64,000 bases of DNA from Microcystaceae cyanobacterium (GTDB taxonomy: Bacteria > Cyanobacteriota > Cyanobacteriia > Cyanobacteriales > Microcystaceae), in assembly GCA_041746575.1 (NCBI GenBank), contig JBGTGT010000098.1:64001-128000 (forward strand), given 5' to 3'. Below the pieces are notes generated by a model, which did not search any database, was not told where the DNA came from, and saw only the letters and a list, made by a program, of their open reading frames with translations. This document shows, in pieces, positions 1,947-42,221 of this stretch. The number at the start of each line of letters is the position of its first letter. The stretch's first letter is position 1. The position numbers and the translations under genes were made by a program.

Positions 1947-3167
1947 TTAATGCTGTGCCAATGAGGGCATTTTCCCTTTTAACCCTGTCATCAATTGTAA
2001 GGTAAAACGCTTAAGGGGAGGGATTTGTCGCAGTAAAATCAACCCAAAGCGACGAATCACCATTAACGGTAACCAAGAATTCGAAAAAGTGCGATCTAAT
2101 AAGTCAGTCATCCCCAAAATCACAAAATTTTCCCATTTTCGCCATCGTTCATACCGTTTTAAGACGTTGATATTACCTAAATCTTCCTGATTTTGAGCGG
2201 CTAACCCTAAAACTTGTGCCAAAGCCGCCGCATCCCGAATTCCTAGATTTAGCCCCTGTCCTCCCACTGGGTGACAACAATGAGCGGCATCTCCCACTAA
2301 AGCTAAACGAGGCTTCACATATTGATTACTCTGCATTAATTGTACGGGAAATAAAAAGCGATCGCTCACTAAGTCTACTTTTCCTAAAATTCCCTTCGTT
2401 CGTGTCTGTAATTGCGCTAAAAAGGCATCTTTATCCATTTTATACAAGGTTTGCGCCTCTGCATGGGGGGCAGTCCAGACAATTTGACAGCGATTATCAG
2501 GTAAAGGAAGAATCCCCATGGGGCCAGATTCACAAAATCGTTCAAAGGCAATGTTATTCTGAGGTAAGTAATGTTTAACTGTAAAAGCAACGCAGGATTG
2601 CCAATATTTCCAACCTCTTGTCTGAATATTCGCCCATTGTCGAATGTTGGATTTTGCTCCGTCTGCTCCAATAACTAAGGATGTCTGCAAAATCTGTCGT
2701 TGACCCTCTTTTTCAAAAGTAATCAAGGCTTTATCACTTCGATAGTCAATTTCCATAACTTTAGCGGGGCATATCCAGTGAACATGAGAGTATTGGGCGA
2801 TTTTTCTCTGTAATTCCCCTAAAATGAGCGAATGTTCTCCGACATAGCCTAAATCTTCCGTCCCTAAATCTTGGGTTTCAAACTGTACCGTTTGAGAAAA
2901 ATCAGCGTCTGATAAGGAAATATGATTAAAACGTCCAATTTGTGGTAAAATATTTGACCATACTCCTAATCTGTTTAATATTCTGCCAGAAAGTAATGAT
3001 AAAGCGTAAGCCTGTCGGCGTGAACGTACCTGTTCTAAAGATTGGGATTCAATAATAACAACGTTTAAAAGGGTGTCTTTTAAGGCCACCGCTAAGGTTG
3101 TCCCGACAATGCCACCACCAATAATGGCAAGATCATAATGGGGGGTTATTCCTCGTTTTTGCGTCAT
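1947..3167 (-). CDS. ubiH: FAD-dependent hydroxylase, UbiH/UbiF/COQ6 family
   Basis: GGGIVG Rossmann motif, IGADG, GDAAHCCHPVGGQGLNLGIRD. Confidence 0.85.
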   Translation of the reverse strand: MTQKRGITPHYDLAIIGGGIVGTTLAVALKDTLLNVVIIESQSLEQVRSRRQAYALSLLSGRILNRLGVWSNILPQIGRFNHISLSDADFSQTVQFETQDLGTEDLGYVGEHSLILGELQRKIAQYSHVHWICPAKVMEIDYRSDKALITFEKEGQRQILQTSLVIGADGAKSNIRQWANIQTRGWKYWQSCVAFTVKHYLPQNNIAFERFCESGPMGILPLPDNRCQIVWTAPHAEAQTLYKMDKDAFLAQLQTRTKGILGKVDLVSDRFLFPVQLMQSNQYVKPRLALVGDAAHCCHPVGGQGLNLGIRDAAALAQVLGLAAQNQEDLGNINVLKRYERWRKWENFVILGMTDLLDRTFSNSWLPLMVIRRFGLILLRQIPPLKRFTLQLMTGLKGKMPSLAQH

Positions 3168-3216
3168 TTTCAGTGCAAATTTAATTCGTGGATATTAAAC
3201 GTTATCATTCTCTATT

Positions 3217-3720
3217 TTAGGGGATAAATGGGAGGAGGTCGAATTTTTGACGGATTTCCCACAGGGAGCGATTTAGTAGAGACTCATAATCAAGAAAAGG
3301 ATAATATTTTCTTTTGCCACGGGTTTTCAACCAAACAATCAAAATTTCTGGTATTAATCTCGGCAAAACTAATAAAATTGAAGTATAAAGCCACCATAAC
3401 CCATTCTGCTTAATTAAGTCATTATACATAATATCTATCGCCGGTCCAATCTTAGGATCTTTTCGGACACGGATATAATCGCTGAACTTGAAATCACTCG
3501 TCCAAAATGTTAGAGGTAATCGTTTAATTTCGTCATACATCCCCGTGTCACAAGCTAAGATAACATGGGAAACATCGTGCGCCAACATAATCTGCGCTAA
3601 TTCTGGCGGTAGTTCTCTAGGATCGGTAATATTAGGATTAATCTGGTAAAATTCTTCTAATCCTTGCTGAAGCGTTTGTGTGCTATGTTTGTTTGCGTAC
3701 TGAGGACAAGAACCCATCAT
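3217..3720 (-). CDS. Hypothetical protein with Coq4-like HDxxH...E metal motif
   Basis: AHDVSHVILACDTGMYDE; C-terminal YESLLNRSLWEIRQKF resembles Coq4-like tails. Confidence 0.6.
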   Translation of the reverse strand: MMGSCPQYANKHSTQTLQQGLEEFYQINPNITDPRELPPELAQIMLAHDVSHVILACDTGMYDEIKRLPLTFWTSDFKFSDYIRVRKDPKIGPAIDIMYNDLIKQNGLWWLYTSILLVLPRLIPEILIVWLKTRGKRKYYPFLDYESLLNRSLWEIRQKFDLLPFIP

Positions 3721-3729
3721 CGACTCCCT

Positions 3730-3757
3730 ATTTACGATACGATACTGTTTCGTAAAT
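3730..3757. promoter_or_regulatory. Probable TetR operator between divergent genes
   Basis: Imperfect palindrome ATTTACGATAC-gatact-GTTTCGTAAAT in the 50-bp divergent gap. Confidence 0.7.
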
Positions 3758-3770
3758 TATCATAACACTT

Positions 3771-4358
3771 ATGAGTAAGAATAAACACAAATCATCAGGA
3801 AGGCCTCGTAGTATTCAGTCTCATACAGCTATATTAAAGGCAACTTTGGCATTATTAGAGGAAGTTGGCTTTGAAACCATGAGTATTGAAGCCATTGCCA
3901 AGCGTGCAGGTGTGGGAAAAACGACAATTTATCGGCGTTACCGCAGTAAAGAAGAATTGGTGGTCGATGCGATTGAAAGCATAAGATTAGATGTGGTAAT
4001 TCCTAATACGGGTAATTTTTGGCGTGATATTGATGAATTGCTTGAAAATGCGGCACAGATTACCCTCAACTCTCTAGGACGGCAAACAGTAGCGATGATT
4101 GTTAGTAGTGCTTCCAGTAATGCTCAATTTGCGCAAATTTATTGGACAAAATATTTACAACCTCGACGAGAGGCGTTTGCAATTGTTATCGAACGAGGGA
4201 AAATGAGAAAGGAAATTAAGCCAAATCTAGATGCTGGTTTAATATTTGATACGATGAGTGGCATTATGCTTTATAGCCTTATTTTTCCCCCTGAAAACGA
4301 AACTTGGGTAAACTATGTTCGGCGAGCATTACATTTGCTAGTTCCAACCGATCACTAA
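3771..4358 (+). CDS. TetR/AcrR family transcriptional regulator
   Basis: GRPRS...SIEAIAKRAGVGKTTIYRRYRSKEEL helix-turn-helix. Confidence 0.95.
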   Translation: MSKNKHKSSGRPRSIQSHTAILKATLALLEEVGFETMSIEAIAKRAGVGKTTIYRRYRSKEELVVDAIESIRLDVVIPNTGNFWRDIDELLENAAQITLNSLGRQTVAMIVSSASSNAQFAQIYWTKYLQPRREAFAIVIERGKMRKEIKPNLDAGLIFDTMSGIMLYSLIFPPENETWVNYVRRALHLLVPTDH

Positions 4359-33045: not shown

Positions 33046-34308
33046 TTATAATGACCCATGTTTTTGTGCTAATCGGATAGGTCGGACTAGGTAATATAAA
33101 AAACTGAGAGATTTAGGTAAGCTTAAATAGCTTATATCTTCTTCAGTAGGAGTCATGACTAATCGGCAAAACTGTCCCACTAAATAGCCTTTACTTGTCA
33201 TTTTTTGCAGAGAAGGTTCTCTAAGAAGGCGGAATAAGAAATTTTCTAATATACCTTGAAGGTTTTCTGTACCAGCAAACATTTGCTGACAAACTTTCTC
33301 TCCATATAATTTACTGACTGGATCTGTTTTTATTCGTTGTAAAACTGAGTTGGGTATTTCTGATTTAAAGAGATTTTGGGCTAGAAATAATCCAAGTAGT
33401 AAAATTCGTTCAATTCTTATTTCACTAGCTTGCTTAAAAACGAATTCCCAATTCATTTTGGGATGTAATTGAAGAAGTTCAGCTACATCACAAACCCCTT
33501 TGAGCGATCGCCACTGATCTTTCATGGCGTTAATACAAAGAATTAATAATAAATTTTCCGGCGAAAAACTGAGAATTGTTGTATTAGCAAAAGAAACAGA
33601 ATGAACAGAATTCCACCACCAATTGGAATCCATACTCAAAAAAGATTCCTGTCCCGCCAAGGTCCAATGAATTTCCAAAAAAGCAATCTTATCTTTATTC
33701 GGTTTAAACTTATAATTAAACTGAGAAGGAGAACGAAGAAATTCAGACTCTAGTTCATCCGTTATCCCATATTCTGATAAATATTCATTGTTTCTTTCTA
33801 AGATGAGTAAGGGTTGATAATCTTCTGACATTAGTAGCTCTTTGATTTTTAAAATATCCTTTTTATGAACAATAATATCTAGGTCGCTAATCTGTCGAAG
33901 TGCTAGATTTTTATAAAGTAATAAAGCCAGTACCGGTCCTTTATAGGGAATAGCAGAAATATTATGCTCCTTAAATAAATTGAGTAAATCCATTAATTCT
34001 TTGGCTAAAGATAAATTATGCTGTGCATTGCGATGAAAGAAATTCCGTAGTTGAGAAAAAATCGCCGTAGGAACGTCTTCTGGACAAATAGCATTTAAAC
34101 TATAATATAAGAGCGGCATTACTCCATGATGAGCCGATGTTTTAATCAGGTAAGACCAGTCAATTTCCTGTTTAACTAAGGTTTGAATTCGTTTTTTTGT
34201 GATTAAATCAATCTGAGTTCTGGCGCAACATAATAATAATTCGATTTCAGGGCGGGTTTTTGGAATTAGTTGGCTCGAAAAAAGTTGAAGACTAGAGAAG
34301 GTTTTCAT
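33046..34308 (-). CDS. Nucleotidyltransferase family protein (NTP_transf_5-like, lasso-cluster type)
   Basis: IDW..L...HGVMPL, YKGPVLA..LY....RQISDLDIIV, EIHW, W.SLK..CD, YYLVRPIRL. Confidence 0.88.
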   Translation of the reverse strand: MKTFSSLQLFSSQLIPKTRPEIELLLCCARTQIDLITKKRIQTLVKQEIDWSYLIKTSAHHGVMPLLYYSLNAICPEDVPTAIFSQLRNFFHRNAQHNLSLAKELMDLLNLFKEHNISAIPYKGPVLALLLYKNLALRQISDLDIIVHKKDILKIKELLMSEDYQPLLILERNNEYLSEYGITDELESEFLRSPSQFNYKFKPNKDKIAFLEIHWTLAGQESFLSMDSNWWWNSVHSVSFANTTILSFSPENLLLILCINAMKDQWRSLKGVCDVAELLQLHPKMNWEFVFKQASEIRIERILLLGLFLAQNLFKSEIPNSVLQRIKTDPVSKLYGEKVCQQMFAGTENLQGILENFLFRLLREPSLQKMTSKGYLVGQFCRLVMTPTEEDISYLSLPKSLSFLYYLVRPIRLAQKHGSL

Positions 34309-34314
34309 CGCATT

Positions 34315-36168
34315 TTACCGATAAGATGAGGTTAAATTGGAACTTGTTAAACTATATTGTTGAGCTTGAATTTGAAACAAATGTGCGTAAGTTTTTCCGA
34401 GTTTCATGAGTTCTGCATGCGTACCATCTTCTACAATCTGTCCTTGTTCAAGAACATAAATTCGATCCGCCATTTTTACAGTTGATAAGCGATGACTAAT
34501 CAAAATCGCTGCTTGATTTTTTAAGAGTTGACGAAATCGTTTAAAGACTTCATATTCCGCCTTAGGATCTAAAGCACTGGTGGGTTCATCTAAGACAATT
34601 AGCTGAGAATCTCGCAAAAATGCTCGTGCTAAAGCAATTTTTTGCCATTGACCAATGCTCAGTTCTTCTCCCTGCTCAAACCATTTCCCCAGAACGGTAT
34701 TATAGCCTTTGGGGAGTTGATTAATCACTTCATCGGCTCCTGCATAACCGGCGGCAACGGCGATTTTTTCGGCTTCAGGGGGAATATTGATGTTGCCAAA
34801 CCAGATATTTTCCTGTACTGTGAGGTGGTATTTGGTATAGTCTTGGAAAATAACGCTAATTTCTTGTCTAAGCTCTGTCAGTCTAAATTGGCGTAGGTCA
34901 ATCCCATCAAGGGTAATATTTCCTTCTGTGGGGTCATAGAGACGACATAAGAGTTTGATTAGGGTGGTTTTACCGGAGCCATTCTCCCCAACTAAGGCAA
35001 CGATTTCCCCCGGTTGAATGGTTAAATTCACCGCTTCTAAGGCTTGTCGGCTACTGGTAGGATATTGGAAACTGACTTGATTAAAAATAATCCCTTTTTG
35101 CATGGGTTGGGGAACAGGTTTAGGATGAAGGGGATCGGCAATTTTAGGTCTCAGATCCAGAAATTCGTAGAGATTAGACAAAAATAGATTATCTGAATAA
35201 AGTCCTGCCAAATCGCCTAAGATTCCTTGAAAAGCGGACTGGATTTTCTGAAATGCTTGATGATACATGACTAATCCGCCTAGCGTAATCGTCCCTTGCA
35301 CAGTTTGATAAGCAATAAAGCCATAAACCCCAAAAACGGCAAGAGTAGAACTGATTTGACTGATTAACTGGCGCAGAGAATATTGAGTGGTGAGTTGCAG
35401 TTTTTCTCGATGCAGTTGACGGCGTAATTGACGAAAACGACGGGCAAACAGCGATCCTAACGCAAATAAACGGATTTCTTTGGCGTGCCAGTCTTGGGTT
35501 AACATCCAGTGAAAGTAATTTGCTCGTCTTTCGGTTGTTGTCTTTTGTCGTTGCCAACGATACACTTGACCGGCGTATTTTAAACGCACGAGAATATTTG
35601 GGATAACCGCTACAATGACAATGGCAATAATCCCCCAGTGTAAAGATAGGAGTAAGCTAGCGATCGCTACTAACGAAACACTATTTTGAGCAATTTGAAC
35701 CAATTTATTGAGAACCTGATTGGGACGAAAGGAAGCTTCTGATTGAGCGCGGTGTAGGGTATCGTAGTATTTAGCATTTTCGTAATATTCCAAATCCACT
35801 TCAATAGACTTAGCGTGAAGCAGTCCATACATATAGTCCGAAACCAACTGAGATTGAATTTCATCGACCAATTTAGTCAAAAAACTGCATAAATTACTGA
35901 TTACCGTCACAGCACCTGCGAAACTAATGAGGGTAAGAACTGTTTGAAAAGCTGAAGCTTTGTTTGGAGCCGTAATACCTATATTAACCGCGTCGACCAC
36001 CAATTTCATGAGATAGAGAGAGAATAGAGGTAAAATCCCTTGAATAAGGATTAAAAATACTCTAGCCATTGTCCAACGGGGACTACTTTGCCAAACTAAA
36101 GAGACAGCACGGCCTAACCGTAGGGATTGGCTGATTTTTGCCCTTAATCTTGTTAAATAAGCCATCAT
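34315..36168 (-). CDS. ABC exporter (TMD+NBD) without a C39 peptidase domain
   Basis: TM helices from the N-terminus; AKEIRLF, GENGSGKTT, ELSIGQWQKIALARAF, LDEPT, ISHR; ATG at 36168 lies 5 nt after the lanM stop (alternative 36183 overlaps it). Confidence 0.93.
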   Translation of the reverse strand: MMAYLTRLRAKISQSLRLGRAVSLVWQSSPRWTMARVFLILIQGILPLFSLYLMKLVVDAVNIGITAPNKASAFQTVLTLISFAGAVTVISNLCSFLTKLVDEIQSQLVSDYMYGLLHAKSIEVDLEYYENAKYYDTLHRAQSEASFRPNQVLNKLVQIAQNSVSLVAIASLLLSLHWGIIAIVIVAVIPNILVRLKYAGQVYRWQRQKTTTERRANYFHWMLTQDWHAKEIRLFALGSLFARRFRQLRRQLHREKLQLTTQYSLRQLISQISSTLAVFGVYGFIAYQTVQGTITLGGLVMYHQAFQKIQSAFQGILGDLAGLYSDNLFLSNLYEFLDLRPKIADPLHPKPVPQPMQKGIIFNQVSFQYPTSSRQALEAVNLTIQPGEIVALVGENGSGKTTLIKLLCRLYDPTEGNITLDGIDLRQFRLTELRQEISVIFQDYTKYHLTVQENIWFGNINIPPEAEKIAVAAGYAGADEVINQLPKGYNTVLGKWFEQGEELSIGQWQKIALARAFLRDSQLIVLDEPTSALDPKAEYEVFKRFRQLLKNQAAILISHRLSTVKMADRIYVLEQGQIVEDGTHAELMKLGKTYAHLFQIQAQQYSLTSSNLTSSYR

Positions 36169-36173
36169 TTGCT

Positions 36174-39100
36174 TTATTCCCACAACAAGACAGACGGTAA
36201 TTGGTCAGGATAGGCGAGTCGTAGGAGTTGATACCCAATACCTGATGCACCTTGGAAGAAACCGGGGTGAAAATCGAGAATAGGACCATAACCATAATGG
36301 CCTTTTTGTTCGGCGCGTGCGACGACTTGGGAGGCAAGGTTCATCGCTGCATCCACTAATTCAGGTCGGTTGAGTTTACGTCCAGCAGTGAAGAGAAATT
36401 CAACCCGTCCCATATTGCCACAACAGAGATGATCAATGTCTGAGAGTCCGTAATTAAGCGTTGTGGTGATAGCAGCCTCAATATCTTGGCGAATTTCTGG
36501 GGTATCGAGAATATCTAGGGTGGCAACTCTGGCTAATCCAATTCCGGGCGCACCATGGCACCATGAACACATACATCTCGGGTAATCTTTGGTTTGGGGT
36601 TGTCGAAAATCTGGCCAGTTATTGAGTTCGGGGATAAAAACACTGCGTTCGTAGGCGATCGCTTCTTCTGCTGCTTCTTTATAGCGGTTATCGCCTGTTA
36701 ATTTATAGAGACGAAGTAAAGCATAGGCAATTCCTGCCGCACCATGAGAGAAACCTGTTAAGAGTTTTGTTTGTTTATTTTGGCTAACTTCTGATGTTAA
36801 GTTCATCAACTTCAACTGATTTATAATATGATCGCCATATTTTTTGCACTTTCCTAAAATCTTTTGAGATAAAGTAGTTTTATAAATGCCCAGAAAACTT
36901 AGCATAATACCTGCCACACCTGATATTACATCAAGTCTACTCTGTGTTTCTTCTATAGATACTTGAGATACCTGAGCTATGTTAGTTAAATCATCATAAT
37001 CAGTTGATTTGTAACTTGGCATAAAATTATGAACTAGATTTAATCCATAAGATAGTGAAGAAAATTCAAACAACTCTCCTAGTGAATGAATCTCTACATT
37101 TTCATTCACTATACTTTTATTATTTTTTATTTTAGGTAGAATAGAATTCATTAAGTTCTGAAACTCTAAATTATTATTATTGCCGAGAACGTGATCTAAA
37201 GCGCTCAAGAAAATAGCAATTCCAATTGCTCCATTATACAAATAATTATCAATAGGACGAAATTGAAATTTGTTAATTACTTCAAAATACTTGGGAGCAA
37301 ACCAAGTTGATATTTTATTATTTAGCTTTATTGATTTTTTAAACATACTCTCCTTTATTTTTTGGCATTCTTTCACGAAGATATCGTTATTGAATTGTCT
37401 TAGTGGGATTACACAATAAGAACTTTCTTGAGAAACATTGTTATCTAAATTTTGATCAATTATGAAAGAATCTAAAGCTCCTTTTATGAAATAAATCTGC
37501 TGTTTTATATCGGCTTGATTGATTTTTTTTAACCTCTTAAAAACAAAATTGAAACTGGGTTCTTCAAAAAAATTTGTAGAAATCACTTTATTTCCATTAA
37601 ATAAATGAACACTACCAGAGTCAGTTAAAAATAGAGGAATATCTAATTTTTCTAAGGCTTCTATTTCCAAAGATAATAAAGACCAAGTAGAAGGTTTTTG
37701 CTTAGATTTTAGAAGCTGTTTAGAAAGAGTATCCAAAACTATACTTCTTTCAATTCCATTCTTCATACAACTTGGAGTCAGACCAGCCTCTTCAATAACT
37801 CTATAGATTCTGGTTGGACGTAATATATAACGTATTAGTTGATGAGAAAATTTTGCTAGGATATTATTATGTTTTAACAGGTTATTTTTATGTTTAATAA
37901 ATATATCACACATCTGAGTAAATCCATCTAAGATTAGAGTAGAACATATAGAATGATCTATATTGAGTCTTTGATTTGTTAAAAAAGTATTAGTCAAGTG
38001 AAGAGAGTGAGCGTTAGAAAAACGCAACATTGTATCTGTGTTAACATTTTTAAATTCTGATGTAATTACATAAACTGGTTTTGCATTAAACTCTTGTAAT
38101 GCACCAGAGCTAAAAGATTGTCCATTTTCTGCAGACATCCATATTGGTAATAGTCCAGTACGAAGAACAGACTTTTTGAGAAGATTATAACTAAAACTTT
38201 GAATATTATCTTCCAAGTCTTGAGCATTCTCAAGATTTTTTCTAGGATGCATCAACGTCTCTAAATCAATAATCACTGGATATTCTCCATGACTAATGAT
38301 ATTATCAAAGTGTAAGTCTGTAGCATCTAGTAGATAACTTACTGCTAGTAGCATTCCCATTCTGTGATAGTAATATTCAGCCGATTCTCTTGTTGTGAAA
38401 GCATTGCTTTCAACAAACTCAACCCAGCCATATTCAGGGCGAACTAAAGTTTTAATTATCTTGAATTTTAATATTTGTGTTTTATCATTAAAATATTGTA
38501 ACAACTCAAAAAAAAGACTTTCTAAATTTATATTTTTAGGTTTATAGATTAATTTTAGCCCAGATTGAAAATGAATACACAAAACACTTTTGCCATTTTG
38601 GTGTCTATCTGATAAATCAGTTTCAATATGAACTACTTCTTTTAGTTTATTTTGACTAAATTTTTTTTCTATATCTGACCAATCTTGATCAAGACGTTGG
38701 ATTAATAACATAGTATTATTAATCCACATATTAATCACAGTCACAATTAAACGTGCTAATACTGAATACTCGCAAAAAAAGACTTTTATTCGACGCTTAA
38801 GTAAATCATTGATAAAATTAAAATAATCATCATTTTCATATGTACTTTTTTCTTTTCTTGAGATTATACTAAAAGTAGTTTTTTTGCCTATTTTAAAGAG
38901 GAAAAATTCTAGCTCTAAGGTTCTTTCACTTACTTTTGAAAGTGTTCTAAGTAAGCTTTTTTCTAAGTCAAGATGGGCTGATTGACCGATGATATAATAT
39001 TTTTGACCAATTTTTTCTTTGAGTTGATGTCTAGCAAAATTAATAAAGTGAAGATAAAAATCTTCAAAAGGGAGAGTATTATTATTTCTCTTTTTAATAA

Positions 39101-39446
39101 TTTCCTCTTTCTCATTATAGATAGTTTCCTGAAAAGATACAGATATAAACTCTAAAAGCTCATCAAGAGTTTTCAGCCAATTTGGGATAGTTAAGTTCTC
39201 TACACAATCTTGATAAGTAATCGCATTTCTAACATCTGTTAATTCAAGATTAGACCAAGCTAAGCGACGTCTAAATAGACTCCAATTTCCATTTGTTACC
39301 ACTTGGCACCATTTTTCAATAATAAAATCTGAATTCTTTTGGATTGATTTTTTATTAGTATCTATTATTGATCTATGGGTATTCAGAATTTCATTCAAAG
39401 ATTGGCTGTTTGCAAAAATATGCAAAGTTTCTTCGTAAGATAACAT
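36174..39446 (-). CDS. lanM: Class II lanthipeptide synthetase LanM, CCG type
   Basis: Dehydratase motifs SDRHQNG, YKPK, GWVEFV, TDLHFDN, IDLET, RPTRIY; LanC-like cyclase motifs LYNGAIG, GFSHGAAG, WCHGAPG, LCCG, GFFQGASG; Shine-Dalgarno AAGGAG. Confidence 0.95.
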   Translation of the reverse strand: MLSYEETLHIFANSQSLNEILNTHRSIIDTNKKSIQKNSDFIIEKWCQVVTNGNWSLFRRRLAWSNLELTDVRNAITYQDCVENLTIPNWLKTLDELLEFISVSFQETIYNEKEEIIKKRNNNTLPFEDFYLHFINFARHQLKEKIGQKYYIIGQSAHLDLEKSLLRTLSKVSERTLELEFFLFKIGKKTTFSIISRKEKSTYENDDYFNFINDLLKRRIKVFFCEYSVLARLIVTVINMWINNTMLLIQRLDQDWSDIEKKFSQNKLKEVVHIETDLSDRHQNGKSVLCIHFQSGLKLIYKPKNINLESLFFELLQYFNDKTQILKFKIIKTLVRPEYGWVEFVESNAFTTRESAEYYYHRMGMLLAVSYLLDATDLHFDNIISHGEYPVIIDLETLMHPRKNLENAQDLEDNIQSFSYNLLKKSVLRTGLLPIWMSAENGQSFSSGALQEFNAKPVYVITSEFKNVNTDTMLRFSNAHSLHLTNTFLTNQRLNIDHSICSTLILDGFTQMCDIFIKHKNNLLKHNNILAKFSHQLIRYILRPTRIYRVIEEAGLTPSCMKNGIERSIVLDTLSKQLLKSKQKPSTWSLLSLEIEALEKLDIPLFLTDSGSVHLFNGNKVISTNFFEEPSFNFVFKRLKKINQADIKQQIYFIKGALDSFIIDQNLDNNVSQESSYCVIPLRQFNNDIFVKECQKIKESMFKKSIKLNNKISTWFAPKYFEVINKFQFRPIDNYLYNGAIGIAIFLSALDHVLGNNNNLEFQNLMNSILPKIKNNKSIVNENVEIHSLGELFEFSSLSYGLNLVHNFMPSYKSTDYDDLTNIAQVSQVSIEETQSRLDVISGVAGIMLSFLGIYKTTLSQKILGKCKKYGDHIINQLKLMNLTSEVSQNKQTKLLTGFSHGAAGIAYALLRLYKLTGDNRYKEAAEEAIAYERSVFIPELNNWPDFRQPQTKDYPRCMCSWCHGAPGIGLARVATLDILDTPEIRQDIEAAITTTLNYGLSDIDHLCCGNMGRVEFLFTAGRKLNRPELVDAAMNLASQVVARAEQKGHYGYGPILDFHPGFFQGASGIGYQLLRLAYPDQLPSVLLWE

Positions 39447-39562
39447 TTTTTTCTCCTTGTATTTTTCTAAAAAATTCTAACTTGTAAATCCGATAAATCA
39501 TCAGCTAGTTACATACATAGCCAATATTTTTATGATAAGAAGAACTAGCTATTGAGTATTGT

Positions 39563-40255
39563 CTAACATATATAATTGTTTGTGCTTGCACAGAATATCG
39601 TGTCCATTAGAGAATCATCCCCAATAATTCCGCAACCAGAAACTTCTACACTATATGTTAAGCTTGATAAGGACTGAAGATAAATAGATAAACTAGGGAT
39701 AAAAGGATTAGGTAAAATCACAAATATTTTATCAGTTTTTTCTTCAAAAATCTTGATAAAAATATTTTGCGAAAGTTCAAGAGTTAGATAAGCTTTTATT
39801 GTTTTTAGTGGCTCTCGAATTAGCCGATCTTTTAAATCTCTATTTCTCCAACAATTAGTAATTAATTGTATAGCATGGTTACTATCTACTACAGTATTTC
39901 GTTGCTGATCCAAAACCCAGCGAGCAACATCCTCATAAGTCATCCCTAAAGCGGCTTGTAATTGCTCTTCAGACATTCCCTCATAAGGATTACAAGGTAA
40001 CACCATATAAATCGTATCTTCTGTTTCCTCAAGTACCTGAATCTCAAGGTCTTCTGGTAATTTTTGGTCTAATTCTTGTTCAATTACTGCTTTAGGATTT
40101 GCTAATAACTCCTGTTTAAAGTCTTCATCTTTTAAAGCACGAGTAATCAGATGAATTTCTAAATCTTTGCGAGTTTGTAAAGCTAACTGAGAATTTGGTT
40201 TAAACTGAAAAGACCATAGGGGTAAGTTGGGGTTCATGCTTTCATGAGTATTCAT
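39563..40255 (-). CDS. NHLP (nitrile-hydratase-like leader) RiPP precursor with two leader domains
   Basis: RKDLEIHLITRALKDEDFKQELLANPK...VLEETEDTIYMVLP, then a second copy LITNCWRNRDLKDRLIREP...FEEKTDKIFVILP; Ser/Thr/Cys C-terminal tail; Shine-Dalgarno AGGAG. Confidence 0.88.
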   Translation of the reverse strand: MNTHESMNPNLPLWSFQFKPNSQLALQTRKDLEIHLITRALKDEDFKQELLANPKAVIEQELDQKLPEDLEIQVLEETEDTIYMVLPCNPYEGMSEEQLQAALGMTYEDVARWVLDQQRNTVVDSNHAIQLITNCWRNRDLKDRLIREPLKTIKAYLTLELSQNIFIKIFEEKTDKIFVILPNPFIPSLSIYLQSLSSLTYSVEVSGCGIIGDDSLMDTIFCASTNNYIC

Positions 40256-40273
40256 GGTAAAATCTCCTAAAAT

Positions 40274-40657
40274 TTAGTGAAGTTGTTTGCGTTTTTTGAG
40301 AATTTTATTTCCGGCGAAAATAGAGCCAATTACCATTAAGCCAAAGATAGAAGAAGGTTCAGGAATACAAATTGTCTTATCGTCTTGTATATCATCTGAT
40401 GTGAAATCAGTAACCCCTAAGATTTTCAGAGGTTTGCCATTTTGTCCTCGACAATAATAGACTTTATCGCCATCTCCGATATCTTCTTCCTCAAATGCTC
40501 CTCTTTGAGCAAAACAAGTGAACGCAAATTCTTCAAGTGTAAAGCCCTGAGTTGCATAGGCCAATGGATGACTAAATACCAGCATTGCTATTGTAGATAA
40601 GAGAAAGAATCGATAATTATTGCGAATATGACGAATGACTAACATAATAAAAACCAT
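40274..40657 (-). CDS. Small PEP-CTERM protein
   Basis: Signal peptide ending AYA; IPEPSS, then TM helix and KKRKQLH tail; exact start uncertain. Confidence 0.85.
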   Translation of the reverse strand: MVFIMLVIRHIRNNYRFFLLSTIAMLVFSHPLAYATQGFTLEEFAFTCFAQRGAFEEEDIGDGDKVYYCRGQNGKPLKILGVTDFTSDDIQDDKTICIPEPSSIFGLMVIGSIFAGNKILKKRKQLH

Positions 40658-41115
40658 CCCTTTTTTTGCTCACCGTCAATCGCTGATAAAGGAACTCGAA
40701 TATATCGAGCCATATTCCCTGCACCACCGATAATGACTTTCCCTTCGTATTCTACCCACGCATGGGCTGACATTTTCCCTTTTGGATGTCGGGTAAACCC
40801 AATACAAAGGTCAGGTGAATAACCCCGTTCTTCTAATAGCAATTGAGTCGCTAATGCACGTGCTAAACATCTAATTTTTCGTACATAGTGACTCGCAGTT
40901 CTCACTGTCCATAACACCCTATCTATCTCCACAGAAGCTTGCTCTGCATCGTATAATTTAGGGTTAGACGGAAAGACTTTCGCTAAAAGAAAACGTAACC
41001 TTTGAAAAGGTAAAAACTTCAGTCCGACTCGAATACTTCCTAGTAAAATAAACGCCTTAATCAGCAACAATTTTTCCGAGAAAGTGAGTTGTAGAAACTT
41101 AAGTAGCCTTTTCAT
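40639..41115 (-). CDS. Lasso peptide biosynthesis B2-type protease (transglutaminase-like)
   Basis: LKFLPFQRL, CLARALA (catalytic Cys), IGF, AHAWVE..GKVIIG; ATG at 41115 or TTG at 41121. Confidence 0.9.
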   Translation of the reverse strand: MKRLLKFLQLTFSEKLLLIKAFILLGSIRVGLKFLPFQRLRFLLAKVFPSNPKLYDAEQASVEIDRVLWTVRTASHYVRKIRCLARALATQLLLEERGYSPDLCIGFTRHPKGKMSAHAWVEYEGKVIIGGAGNMARYIRVPLSAIDGEQKKGWFLLC

Positions 41116-41337
41116 GTTCAATGAGTCTTGGTGAATCGCTTCTACTTATTACTCGGAAACAGTCACTGACTTTGTGACGCCTTCCGTTAAAGTTGTTACA
41201 AAACTCAACAATTTATAGCCGACAGAATAACAAAACAACCCCTGCAAAAGACGTTGCTAAGTAGGGGAGGAACAAGCAATCATTAAAAATCAAAGAAAAT
41301 ACCGTCTTTTGCCACTGATGAAGTATTTGATTGATGG

Positions 41338-41397
41338 TAGGGGTGCAAGGTTTGCGCCCAAAGTGCAAGGTTTGCGCCCAAAATGCAAGGTTTACGC
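41338..41397 (+). repeat. Three tandem 20-bp REP-like repeats
   Basis: gggtgcaaggtttgcgccca / aagtgcaaggtttgcgccca / aaatgcaaggtttacgc, preceded by gtag. Confidence 0.85.
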
Positions 41398-42221
41398 TAA
41401 TTATTAATGATTGTATTTAAGCTTTTTAAAAGAGTTTCGAGGGGAATTGCCCAACTATATTGACTCATCTCTTGTTTTTCCGTTAAGGATGCCCGTGTTC
41501 CGTCTGTAAACACATAAGGATTCCCCCACAGCGGATATTTATGAATGCCGTTAATGCCAATAATTTCGCCAAATTGATTAAATAGCGCACCACCGCTCAT
41601 GCCTTTTCGTACCGTACTCGTATAGCCAATTTGATAACCTCCCGCAAAGGGTTTAGGACTCCATTGACTGATAATTCCCGGATTGAGGACGAATTGCCCC
41701 CTAGAATCTCCATCATCCTCTACGGGAAACCCTGCCGCAAATACCGGTTCACCCCTTTGTGGTTGACTTGAAACGAATAAAGACGCAACCGAATAGGAGA
41801 GAGGACTGGTAAAAGTGACTAGGGCTAAATCTTGATCTCGAAAATTAACGTTTTTTAGGACATTTGCCGGATGAACTTGACCGTCGGGGGTGACGATTCG
41901 ATAATTTTGTTGAGGTTCACCATAAATCATAACATGACGATTTGTTACGACCATATAACGGTTACCCCTTTGTTGAATAATAATCCCTGATCCCCACGTT
42001 TGGCCGGATAAGACTTTGACAGTTACCCTTCTGGCGGTTTGATAAATCTCATTCTGCTCAAATATAGGGGGGAATCGTGGGGAGGGAGAGGTTAAAGAAC
42101 GGGATGGAAACGGTTCATCCATTGGCGTATCGCTAAAATCAAGGGGTTCTTCAATCGCACACCCCGGATTGAAAGATAAAAACGACCAACCCATGAGGAA
42201 TAAAACCTTTTGCCATTTCAT
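41397..42221 (-). CDS. Trypsin-like (S1C/Trypsin_2) secreted serine protease
   Basis: Signal peptide; GSG, VTNRHV, DLA, GFP, GMSGG, IGING. Confidence 0.92.
   Translation of the reverse strand: MKWQKVLFLMGWSFLSFNPGCAIEEPLDFSDTPMDEPFPSRSLTSPSPRFPPIFEQNEIYQTARRVTVKVLSGQTWGSGIIIQQRGNRYMVVTNRHVMIYGEPQQNYRIVTPDGQVHPANVLKNVNFRDQDLALVTFTSPLSYSVASLFVSSQPQRGEPVFAAGFPVEDDGDSRGQFVLNPGIISQWSPKPFAGGYQIGYTSTVRKGMSGGALFNQFGEIIGINGIHKYPLWGNPYVFTDGTRASLTEKQEMSQYSWAIPLETLLKSLNTIINN

Follow-up and report, generated by a model that had tools for sequence, protein, structure and literature searches.

A lasso-type B2 protease as a probable leader peptidase in a family of class II lanthipeptide clusters conserved among cyanobacteria

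Six intact, co-directional genes on the minus strand, at 33046-41121 of the window (the whole 64,000-nt stretch of DNA analysed, whose positions are used throughout), belong to a family of class II lanthipeptide clusters that is conserved in cyanobacteria, and this copy is intact. On balance, we favour the reading that this family was built on lasso accessory genes, with B2 as a predicted leader peptidase replacing a C39 domain. B2 thus likely stands in for the missing C39 domain in the maturation of a ProcM-like (CCG-type) lanthipeptide. If true, a lasso-peptide protease has been recruited to cut off a lanthipeptide leader. Our literature search found no paper on this cluster family, nor any describing the use of a B2 on a lanthipeptide leader.

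Gene content of the locus

The genes run in the order B2, PEP-CTERM, NHLP precursor, lanM, C39-less ABC exporter and NTP_transf_5 (NTP5). The first-pass annotation had described them as closely packed and co-directional in this order, and the open reading frame list agrees, including the gaps and overlap; the 5-nt lanM-ABC gap corresponds to a candidate later start of the ABC gene at 36168, while from its GTG start this gene overlaps lanM by 10 nt. The family assignments also stand, with profile scores far over chance.

B2 (40639-41121, minus strand as for all features below) encodes a 160-aa lasso-type transglutaminase-like (C96) cysteine protease, matching NF033537 (lasso_biosyn_B2) at 109.1 bits (cut-off 33) and PF13471 at 73.2 bits. 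Its start codon is TTG, with an ATG two codons further in. The PEP-CTERM gene (40274-40657) overlaps B2 by 19 nt. Its 127-aa product, with a signal-peptide-like N-terminus and a C-terminal PEP-CTERM anchor, matches TIGR02595 at 21 bits (cut-off 16) and is a small, predicted secreted protein. A homologue (53% identical) was seen at the equivalent position in just one locus, that of Okeania (L058), where a stop lies near the frame start; two exosortase genes are present in the genome studied here.

The precursor gene (39563-40255) follows after an 18-nt gap. The 230-aa product matches TIGR03793 (leader_NHLP) at 108.6 bits (cut-off 50.9), and contains two NHLP-like domains in tandem, a feature that adds to the first-pass annotation. 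The first domain (39953-40174, aa 28-101) scores 83.5 bits over model positions 1-73, with aa 29-62 modelled as a three-helix unit (pLDDT about 78-90). The second, diverged domain (39707-39871, about aa 129-183) scores 30.4 bits, under the cut-off, but shares 34% identity with the first over 58 aa (E 3e-11), and aa 125-157 form a second three-helix unit in the model. A 5.8-billion-protein collection holds 180 related 90%-identity protein clusters at E<=1e-5. The predicted core peptide (39566-39634, aa 208-230, CGIIGDDSLMDTIFCASTNNYIC) has about 23 residues, including 3 Cys and 4 Ser/Thr. Its boundary was placed after Gly207 because this residue is invariant in a 10-sequence alignment and the sequence beyond is hypervariable. 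Across the family, 79 of 120 precursor tails fit h-h-G-[SAGCNT], followed by cores with a median of 26 aa and 3 Cys. In 69 of the 79, the Gly is followed by S, G, A or C, the same small-residue set that occupies position 1 of lasso cores. The tail of the precursor at this locus does not match the strict family motif, and its cleavage site is therefore uncertain.

The lanM gene (36174-39446), separated from the precursor gene by 116 nt, encodes a 1090-aa class II lanthipeptide synthetase. It matches TIGR03897 at 808.6 bits (cut-off 304) over model positions 1-932, as well as DUF4135 and LANC_like. The motifs SWCHG (residue 963) and HLCCGNMG (residue 1008), found in 9/9 relatives, indicate a CCG-type zinc site and hence a ProcM-like enzyme, which fits the hypervariable cores. 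The ABC exporter (34315-36183) is a half-transporter (TMD + NBD) with ABC_membrane and ABC_tran matches only, the Peptidase_C39 profile giving no match in it. After a further 6 nt, the NTP_transf_5 gene (33046-34308) encodes a 420-aa nucleotidyltransferase.

Distribution and ancestry of the cluster family

We ran the synteny search across cyanobacteria suggested in the first-pass annotation, and found that B2, tandem-NHLP precursor and LanM, with or without ABC and NTP5, recur at 40-66% protein identity. In all seven of the nearest LanM loci in genome_contigs (Okeania, Floridaenema, Microcoleus, Nostochopsis, aff. Roholtiella, Nostoc and a Phormidiaceae MAG), B2 lies directly upstream of the tandem-NHLP precursor(s), followed by LanM. 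Identities are 49-62% for B2, 51-66% for the precursor(s) and 40-44% for LanM. NTP5 is present in six of the seven and a full-length ABC in four; ABC is missing in two relatives, and both ABC and NTP5 in one. A metagenome scan with the precursor alignment yielded 15 close loci (L065-L079): B2 adjoins the precursor in every one, LanM was found in all nine whose contig reaches one, and L065 and L077 carry the full PqqD-B2-NHLP-LanM-ABC-NTP5 set. B2 and precursor are thus adjacent in 22/22 related loci (7 genome and 15 metagenome) from at least five named cyanobacterial families. No lasso cyclase or HPr-kinase was found in any B2/tandem-NHLP/LanM locus. PqqD, the RRE gene, is intact in 6, degraded in 2 and absent in 8 (this genome included) of 16 readable loci. 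The earlier observation that no RRE is present is therefore right for this genome but does not extend to the family, since six relatives have PqqD upstream of B2. A 400-genome sample of the phylum gave no B2 over 47% identity and no precursor match past a single NHLP domain, a concordant absence.

Comparison with 20 B2 loci fetched from other cyanobacteria makes ordinary lasso clusters (PqqD-B2-cyclase-precursor-kinase-ABC-NTP5) the evident source of the accessory genes. Thirteen of the 20 contain PqqD, B2 and one or two Asn-synthase-like cyclases. The cyclase directly follows B2 in 12 of these, with a 2OG-Fe(II) oxygenase gene between the two in L052; ABC and/or NTP5 matches likewise occur in 12, the exception again being L052, a 9.3-kb contig. 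A Pfam HPr-kinase match (E<=1e-5) is present in nine of the 13; small precursor-like ORFs were read in six of them. Four further loci are of a cyclase-less PqqD/HPrK/glycosyltransferase-B2-ABC-NTP5 (GT) type. Judged by sequence, B2, ABC and NTP5 descend from the kind found in cyanobacterial lasso clusters. The local ABC is 57-64% identical to ABC genes in cyanobacterial lasso, GT-type and LanM-type clusters, and groups with five other LanM-type ABCs (SH-aLRT 90) within a clade that also holds lasso-cluster exporters. Cyclase and kinase have been lost throughout the B2/tandem-NHLP/LanM family, and the RRE in this genome.

All 18 LanM-linked B2s cluster together (UFboot 99, SH-aLRT 100), separately from the B2s of lasso-type and GT-type loci. 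Residue 136 is Asn throughout this clade, where other B2s have Asp or Asn, and the alignments reveal a C-terminal extension of roughly 10 aa, with invariant W156 and L158, in LanM-linked B2s only. The clade points to one origin of these proteins. Their invariant catalytic Cys and His, and dN/dS values of 0.17-0.60 across 10 unsaturated pairs (0.24 and 0.30 for the PqqD-less pairs), which indicate purifying selection, point to continued function.

These data bear on the two readings offered by the first-pass annotation: a composite pathway, which is upheld as far as comparative genomics reaches (conserved adjacency, a separate B2 clade, purifying selection), or a lanthipeptide cassette in a decaying lasso operon. 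In the latter case PEP-CTERM, NHLP and lanM would have invaded recently, leaving B2, ABC and NTP5 as remnants in decay that do not act on the NHLP peptide. A recent arrival would fit the low GC content of the lanM, precursor and NTP5 genes (31.8-33.7%, whereas B2 and ABC have 40-41% and the genome 40.3%), the missing cyclase, kinase and PqqD, and the outcome of searching close relatives, as two genomes of the same genus (77% and 92% complete) and 20 of the same family gave no sign of the cluster. However, the GC dip of lanM/NHLP relative to B2/ABC is common to 4/5 relatives, and thus reflects an old mosaic as opposed to a recent insertion in this genome. The same junctions occur in the 22 other loci, and with identities of 40-66% these cannot be recent copies of one mobile element. 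None of the six ORFs is disrupted, a genome-wide tblastn search with cyclase, HPr-kinase and PqqD proteins of cyanobacteria gave no match and no pseudogene remnants of cyclase or kinase, and no relative was seen with an intact lasso operon and a one-off lanM insertion. Together with the B2 clade and its dN/dS range, this makes a recent invasion very improbable.

Leader removal, export and the nucleotidyltransferase

The first-pass annotation saw no lasso cyclase, kinase, PqqD/RRE or C39 transporter at the locus. This is correct and, for cyclase, kinase and PqqD, extends to the whole genome (99.78% complete), where Asn_synthase gives only one, fragmentary match (28.8 bits), within a 241-aa frame of a different contig. 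The genome search proposed there did return two C39 candidates. The sole C39-ABC transporter has a C39 score of 23.8 bits and, at the presumed, unaligned position of the catalytic Cys, a Ser, so that it apparently lacks the catalytic residue. The other is a stand-alone 170-aa C39-like protein on contig C122 with apparent Cys/His motifs (SCGPAC and GHLVVVDG), which could act in trans. With no C39 domain in the local ABC and the only C39-ABC both weak and apparently without catalytic Cys, the pathway would need another peptidase.

We propose that LanM would bind the 230-aa precursor via its NHLP domain(s), dehydrate Ser/Thr residues and close thioether rings within the C-terminal core. B2, the only one in the genome, would then cut at the loosely conserved junction between hydrophobic-hydrophobic-Gly and a small residue, using Cys85 and His120 (invariant in 16/16 and 17/17 aligned sequences) and, in this genome, proceeding without an RRE. 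Export of the product would fall to the C39-less half-transporter. The available text of a 2023 review (PMC10885120) mentions a fusion of a lasso B2 with an ABC transporter, which provides precedent for a B2 + ABC unit. The same text reports that lasso B2 enzymes depend on an RRE to cleave efficiently and that they recognise a Thr at -2. Neither was seen here (no conserved Thr two residues before the junction was apparent by eye in the 10-sequence alignment), nor was YxxPxL found in the precursor of this locus, and these points count against B2 as leader peptidase. So does the junction itself, which resembles the relaxed double-glycine site cut by C39 peptidases.

The same observations lend some weight to the idea that the family is conserved but that the final leader cut falls to general proteases or to a C39-type enzyme from another locus, for instance the 170-aa protein. 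In that case B2 might make a cut between the two NHLP domains, have a non-catalytic partner role or contribute to immunity; the tandem leader indeed has room for two-step processing. We regard this as rather unlikely, given that B2 sits immediately beside the precursor in all related loci with its catalytic Cys and His invariant and under purifying selection, that the C39-like ORF is unlinked and lies beside transposase genes, and that the C39-ABC transporter apparently lacks the Cys at its presumed position.

NTP5 matches PF14907 at 195.9 bits (cut-off 31.2), and is predicted to be catalytically active: K123, G124, R138, D142, D144, H214, D274 and W287 are invariant in 18/18 sequences. The nearest solved folds to its model (pLDDT 82.7) are nucleotidyltransferases, namely 5uvd, LnuA (4fo1), MenT1 (8an4) and ANT(2'')-Ia. 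The first-pass annotation proposed tailoring by this enzyme; as a dedicated step, this would add a nucleotide to the lanthipeptide core that stays in the final product. The conserved NTase motif (K123 G124 ... D142 x D144), the small-molecule O-nucleotidyltransferases LnuA and ANT(2'')-Ia among the nearest folds and the retention of the gene in most genome loci are compatible with this. However, the Foldseek matches are weak (E 2e-3 to 9e-2), no conserved acceptor residue is seen in the hypervariable cores of the aligned family precursors, and the same enzyme family also occurs in lasso and glycosylated/kinase-type clusters. The NTP5 tree is unresolved and does not follow cluster type: L062 pairs with a GT-type NTP5 (97/94 support), and between L062 and L063 B2 is 86% identical but NTP5 only 45%. 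Dedicated tailoring is thus doubtful, and NTP5 may be an exchangeable add-on that does not act on this peptide. With least confidence, we suggest that it might O-nucleotidylate a hydroxyl of a peptide in connection with export or self-protection, as opposed to scaffold-specific tailoring.

Comparison with known systems

The locus resembles NHLP/Nif11-led class II clusters (prochlorosins; Dpr, PMC12537861; Haft 2010, PMC2887384, as far as the available texts describe them) in its NHLP-family leader scoring over the TIGR03793 cut-off, a CCG-type LanM, an ABC exporter in the cluster, and hypervariable Cys/Ser/Thr cores after a conserved leader. In contrast, its leader spans about 207 aa (two NHLP domains and a conserved N-terminal extension) versus about 90 aa in the accessible part of PMC2887384, no Gly-Gly motif was found in its precursor, and its exporter lacks the C39 domain that, in the available texts of both papers, those systems use. 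In its place are a lasso-type B2, often with PqqD in the family, and NTP_transf_5.

Cyanobacterial lasso clusters of the type PqqD(B1)-B2-cyclase(C)-precursor-HPr-kinase-ABC-(NTP_transf_5), the paeninodin-like kinase type, share homologous B2 (up to 47% identity), ABC (39-64%) and NTP5 (33-42%), as well as the gene order B2 ... ABC-NTP5, and the PqqD of the LanM-type locus L060 is 58% identical to lasso-cluster PqqD. Unlike these clusters, the present locus has no Asn-synthase-like cyclase, HPr-kinase or YxxPxL...T-x precursor, PqqD is lost in this genome, and B2 belongs to a separate clade with its own C-terminal extension. In effect, precursor-LanM occupies the place of the lasso cyclase-precursor-kinase segment.

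Functionally, the proposed pathway would resemble PCAT/AMS transporters (C39 + ABC) and the B2-ABC fusion of the cochonodin lasso cluster (cited in PMC10885120) in pairing a predicted papain-like cysteine protease with an ABC exporter and cutting the leader at a small-residue junction. It would differ from PCAT/AMS in that the protease is a separate C96/transglutaminase-like protein and not a fused C39 domain, and from the cochonodin cluster in that the substrate would be a lanthipeptide and not a lasso peptide.

Gene content of the locus and its source genome

The locus consists of six intact genes, all on the minus strand and closely spaced, as the first-pass annotation had described; the family calls were judged against curated cut-offs and all lie well above them. 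The lasso-type C96/transglutaminase-like cysteine protease B2 (40639-41121; NF033537 at 109.1 bits) is followed by a 127-aa protein whose N-terminus resembles a signal peptide and which carries a PEP-CTERM anchor (40274-40657; TIGR02595 at 21 bits, cut-off 16), an NHLP precursor (39563-40255; TIGR03793 at 108.6 bits, cut-off 50.9), LanM (36174-39446; TIGR03897 at 808.6 bits), an ABC half-transporter with no C39 match (34315-36183) and an NTP_transf_5 nucleotidyltransferase, hereafter NTP5 (33046-34308; PF14907 at 195.9 bits). A scan of the locus for promoters and terminators gave counts close to those of shuffled sequence, and the evidence for an operon is thus limited to the short gaps. Of the sequencing runs listed as containing this sequence, none is of RNA; the four listed are DNA runs from a single study, and three of these may be where the DNA came from. 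The trypsin-like peptidase gene upstream of B2 (41397-42221) was ruled out as a cluster member, as it has no counterpart in the seven nearest LanM loci from other cyanobacterial genera. Within the 276-nt spacer between this gene and B2, a 20-nt unit occurs twice in perfect tandem (GTGCAAGGTTTGCGCCCAAA x2; 41343-41382).

LanM contains an N-terminal dehydratase domain (DUF4135, 357 bits) and a C-terminal LanC-like cyclase domain (LANC_like, 214 bits), with TIGR03897 matching over model positions 1-932. It is of the CCG type, the motifs SWCHG and HLCCGNMG being present in the window and in 9/9 relatives; we take these motifs to be the zinc ligands of the cyclase domain. A domain search of the local ABC exporter gave no match to a C39 peptidase domain, and the corresponding ORFs of relatives are 606-607 aa long. 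NTP5 keeps the NTase motif, and the closest solved folds to its model are nucleotidyltransferases.

The precursor is unusual in size and architecture, with 230 residues and two NHLP-like domains. The second NHLP copy scores below the TIGR03793 cut-off (30.4 bits); in the structural model (mean pLDDT 56.6) the helices recur as two three-helix units. The gene lies 116 nt upstream of lanM, and the predicted core holds 3 Cys and 4 Ser/Thr. There is no Gly-Gly anywhere in the window precursor to mark a leader end, and the Y..P.L motif of lasso-type precursors is likewise absent from it.

The source assembly (4.2 Mb, 134 contigs, 99.78% complete) contains a single gene each for B2, NTP_transf_5 and NHLP, and no PqqD, the RRE (B1) protein of lasso clusters. 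No lasso cyclase was found in the window or the genome, the sole Asn_synthase match being a 28.8-bit fragment, and tblastn queries of the genome with the cyclase, HPr-kinase and PqqD of other cyanobacteria returned no matches. The only C39-ABC transporter of the genome belongs to a cNMP-C39-ABC/HlyD system; its C39 domain scores 23.8 bits and has Ser at what is presumably the catalytic Cys position. A separate 170-aa ORF on another contig (C122:44694-45206, equivalent to L087:6695-7207) resembles a C39 cysteine peptidase with apparent Cys and His motifs, and adjoins InsA and DDE transposase genes. It is a possible candidate for a trans-acting double-glycine peptidase.

Conservation of the arrangement in other cyanobacteria

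The first-pass annotation had offered two readings of this mixture: a composite pathway, in which a LanM-cyclised peptide is released by B2, tailored by the nucleotidyltransferase and exported, or a lanthipeptide cassette that had invaded a decaying lasso operon. A search of all species genomes with the window LanM returned seven loci, from seven genera, at 40-44% identity. In 7/7 of these, a B2 (49-62% identity) immediately precedes the tandem-NHLP precursor genes, of which there are one to three (51-66% identity to that of the window), and LanM comes next. NTP5 is present in 6/7 and a full-length ABC exporter in 4/7, while the PEP-CTERM gene is found in the Okeania locus only. Scanning metagenomes with an alignment of the precursors yielded 21 loci, 15 of them close. 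B2 adjoins the precursor in 15/15, LanM is present in all nine whose contig extends far enough, and two (L065 and L077) hold the full set. No lasso cyclase was detected by tblastn in 22 related LanM-type loci. The decaying-operon reading is rejected, and the composite pathway has the support of a synteny that is both conserved and under selection.

Several of these loci depart from the common layout. The Nostochopsis locus contains three consecutive tandem-NHLP precursor genes with unrelated cores (L061:7044-9609), and has lost ABC and NTP5, a 42-aa ABC remnant being followed by an NFACT gene. In the metagenome locus L070, the LanM frame (2359-4341) encodes 660 aa matching query residues 2-658, the dehydratase part, and the next ORF is weakly NTP5-like; this LanM is possibly a truncated variant.

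In the B2 tree, the 18 LanM-linked proteins form a single group (99/100 support), with the window sister to Okeania (100/99). A C-terminal extension of approximately 10 residues, with invariant Trp and Leu, is common to the LanM-linked B2s, whereas lasso-type B2s are without it. Cys85 and His120 are invariant and position 136 is Asn or Asp. Values of dN/dS range from 0.17 to 0.60 in ten unsaturated pairs, and from 0.24 to 0.30 for pairs from loci that are PqqD-less. Together, these features of sequence suggest that the LanM-linked B2s have one origin and are still functional. A search of PDB sequences with the B2 profile gave no match at E<=0.01.

Sixteen LanM-type loci have readable sequence upstream of B2. 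An intact PqqD is present in 6/16 (L060, L065, L072, L074, L078 and L077, where it is fused to B2), a degraded one in 2/16 (L067 and L073) and none in 8/16 (the window, L058, L059, L061-L064 and L070): the RRE is in the course of loss across the LanM-type loci. In the two degraded cases, PqqD is found upstream of B2 in two pieces in different frames, with approximately 24 residues missing (L067:28-224 and L073:29-207), and is apparently a pseudogene in which RRE loss is under way. The fusion in the metagenome locus L077 (2770-3522) is a single 250-aa ORF, similar to the full-length B protein McjB, here within a lanthipeptide cluster.

The lanM, precursor and NTP5 genes have a GC content of 31.8-33.7%, compared with 40.3% for the genome. 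Two of these genes, lanM and that of the precursor, lie 6-10 GC points below B2/ABC in 4/5 relatives as well, and the mosaic is thus as old as the family origin and did not arise recently in this genome. The cluster was not found in two same-genus genomes (77% and 92% complete); as a whole it is patchily distributed and was probably acquired horizontally. Signs of a mobile element were not found: 25000-50000 contains no tRNA gene, and the cluster is not flanked by repeats. The flanking RsgA and trypsin-like genes are never neighbours in the same-family genomes where both are found, and these genomes therefore define no insertion boundary.

B2 loci with other chemistries

B2 homologues occur in 26/400 other sampled cyanobacterial genomes and in 0/20 same-family genomes. 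None of the B2s in the 400-genome sample exceeds 47% identity, and no precursor match there extends past one NHLP domain, the absence being concordant between the two proteins. A word-index search with B2 gave only 10 matches, a number too small to estimate clade size.

From the B2-bearing genomes, 20 loci were fetched for reading of gene content, none of which contains LanM or NHLP. Of these, 13/20 are of the lasso type: PqqD and B2 are accompanied by a single Asn-synthase-like cyclase or, as in L057, by two. The cyclase directly follows B2 in 12/13, the other (L052) having an intervening 2OG-Fe(II) oxygenase gene. ABC and/or NTP5 was found by tblastn or Pfam in 12/13, and neither was found in L052, a 9.3-kb contig. 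An HPr-kinase Pfam match (E<=1e-5) is present in 9/13, and small ORFs with a YxxPxL...T-x leader could be read in six. The gene content of these loci shows that the initial premise, by which B2, ABC and NTP5 are lasso-cluster parts, holds for cyanobacteria.

A further 4/20 lack a cyclase and carry glycosyltransferases, while the remaining 3/20 have other contexts. The glycosyltransferase loci (L042, L044, L050 and L053) represent a second use of the B2/ABC/NTP5 cassette without a cyclase, in the order PqqD, GT1, small ORF, HPr-kinase, GT2, (epimerase), B2, ABC, NTP5. The small ORFs of L042 and L044 have a lasso-type YxxPxL...T-x leader (e.g. ...NYSEPELKAHGKISGLTQ followed by QVGGSGG...). From these sequences, the product looks like a linear RiPP, probably phosphorylated and glycosylated, and processed by B1/B2.

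In the ABC tree, 6/7 LanM-type exporters cluster (SH-aLRT 90) inside a clade of lasso-cluster exporters, and that of L064 pairs with one from a glycosyltransferase locus. The NTP5 tree is star-like, with the L062 protein pairing with an enzyme of the glycosyltransferase type; L062 and L063 are 86% identical in B2 and 45% in NTP5.

Leader removal and comparison with known systems

The precursor family comprises 180 protein clusters (90% identity) at E<=1e-5 in a large protein collection, with named members from Microcystis, Nostoc, Dolichospermum and Synechocystis. The precomputed domain PF27793 covers this family. In two tandem-NHLP precursors of approximately 365 aa (P0007 and P0041, one from Microcystis aeruginosa), the short core is replaced by a lengthy C-terminal extension bearing a PF13884 domain, likewise precomputed.

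A leader-end motif, h-h-G-[SAGCNT], was found in 79/120 members, with a median core of 26 aa, 3 Cys and 6 Ser/Thr; core sequences are hypervariable across the family. The window precursor tail (EVSG followed by CGIIGDD...) conforms to this motif only via the alignment; its candidate cleavage sites lie after Gly207 or, alternatively, at IIG|D. Near its N-terminus the precursor has a conserved PLWSYQ stretch. The conserved Gly is followed by S, G, A or C in 69/79 motif-matching precursors, presumably the residue set permitted at lasso core position 1. Ahead of this Gly stand beta-branched or hydrophobic residues, at the place that Thr occupies in lasso leaders. The small residue after Gly, together with the nature of those before it, makes a cut after Gly plausible. 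B2 is predicted to supply the leader peptidase activity for the LanM-type precursor.

We put at about even the chances that the lasso C96 protease B2 has been recruited to another RiPP class. On this reading, B2 would be the peptidase dedicated to ProcM-like lanthipeptides with a unique double NHLP leader, and would be RRE-free in half of the lineages including that of the window. A lasso leader peptidase would here be serving outside lasso biosynthesis for the first time, and 'B2 + ABC + NTP_transf_5' would be a three-part cassette for processing and export, shared in cyanobacteria by no fewer than three chemistries: lasso peptides, linear peptides modified by kinase/glycosyltransferase, and lanthipeptides. 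Such modular reuse across RiPP classes belongs in genome-mining rules, without which LanM-type loci will be mislabelled as broken lasso clusters. Leader removal is a practical bottleneck in the heterologous production of NHLP-led lanthipeptides, for which a native stand-alone protease would be a useful tool. Should B2 act without an RRE and without Thr at -2, the view of C96 substrate recognition would change. The LanM-type family provides a natural RRE series (intact, fused, degraded and lost), so that RRE dispensability is directly testable.

In a 2023 review (PMC10885120), C96 proteases are described as lasso-specific and RRE-activated, and class II lanthipeptides are classed as RRE-independent in PMC7470986. 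Our search of the openly accessible literature found no published work joining B2 or PqqD with LanM/NHLP. The window shares with class II lanthipeptide clusters the LanM domains, the cyclase motifs and an adjacent leader-core precursor. It has B2 in common with lasso clusters, but is without the cyclase, PqqD and a short YxxPxL...T-x precursor of the kind that, in lasso clusters, has an Asp/Glu acceptor in its core. Known NHLP/LanM systems, as described in PMC2887384 and PMC12537861, combine a leader of approximately 90 aa with Gly-Gly sites and with transporters of the C39 kind. In contrast to this pairing of Gly-Gly with a C39-ABC partner, the window combines a precursor lacking Gly-Gly with an ABC exporter lacking C39.
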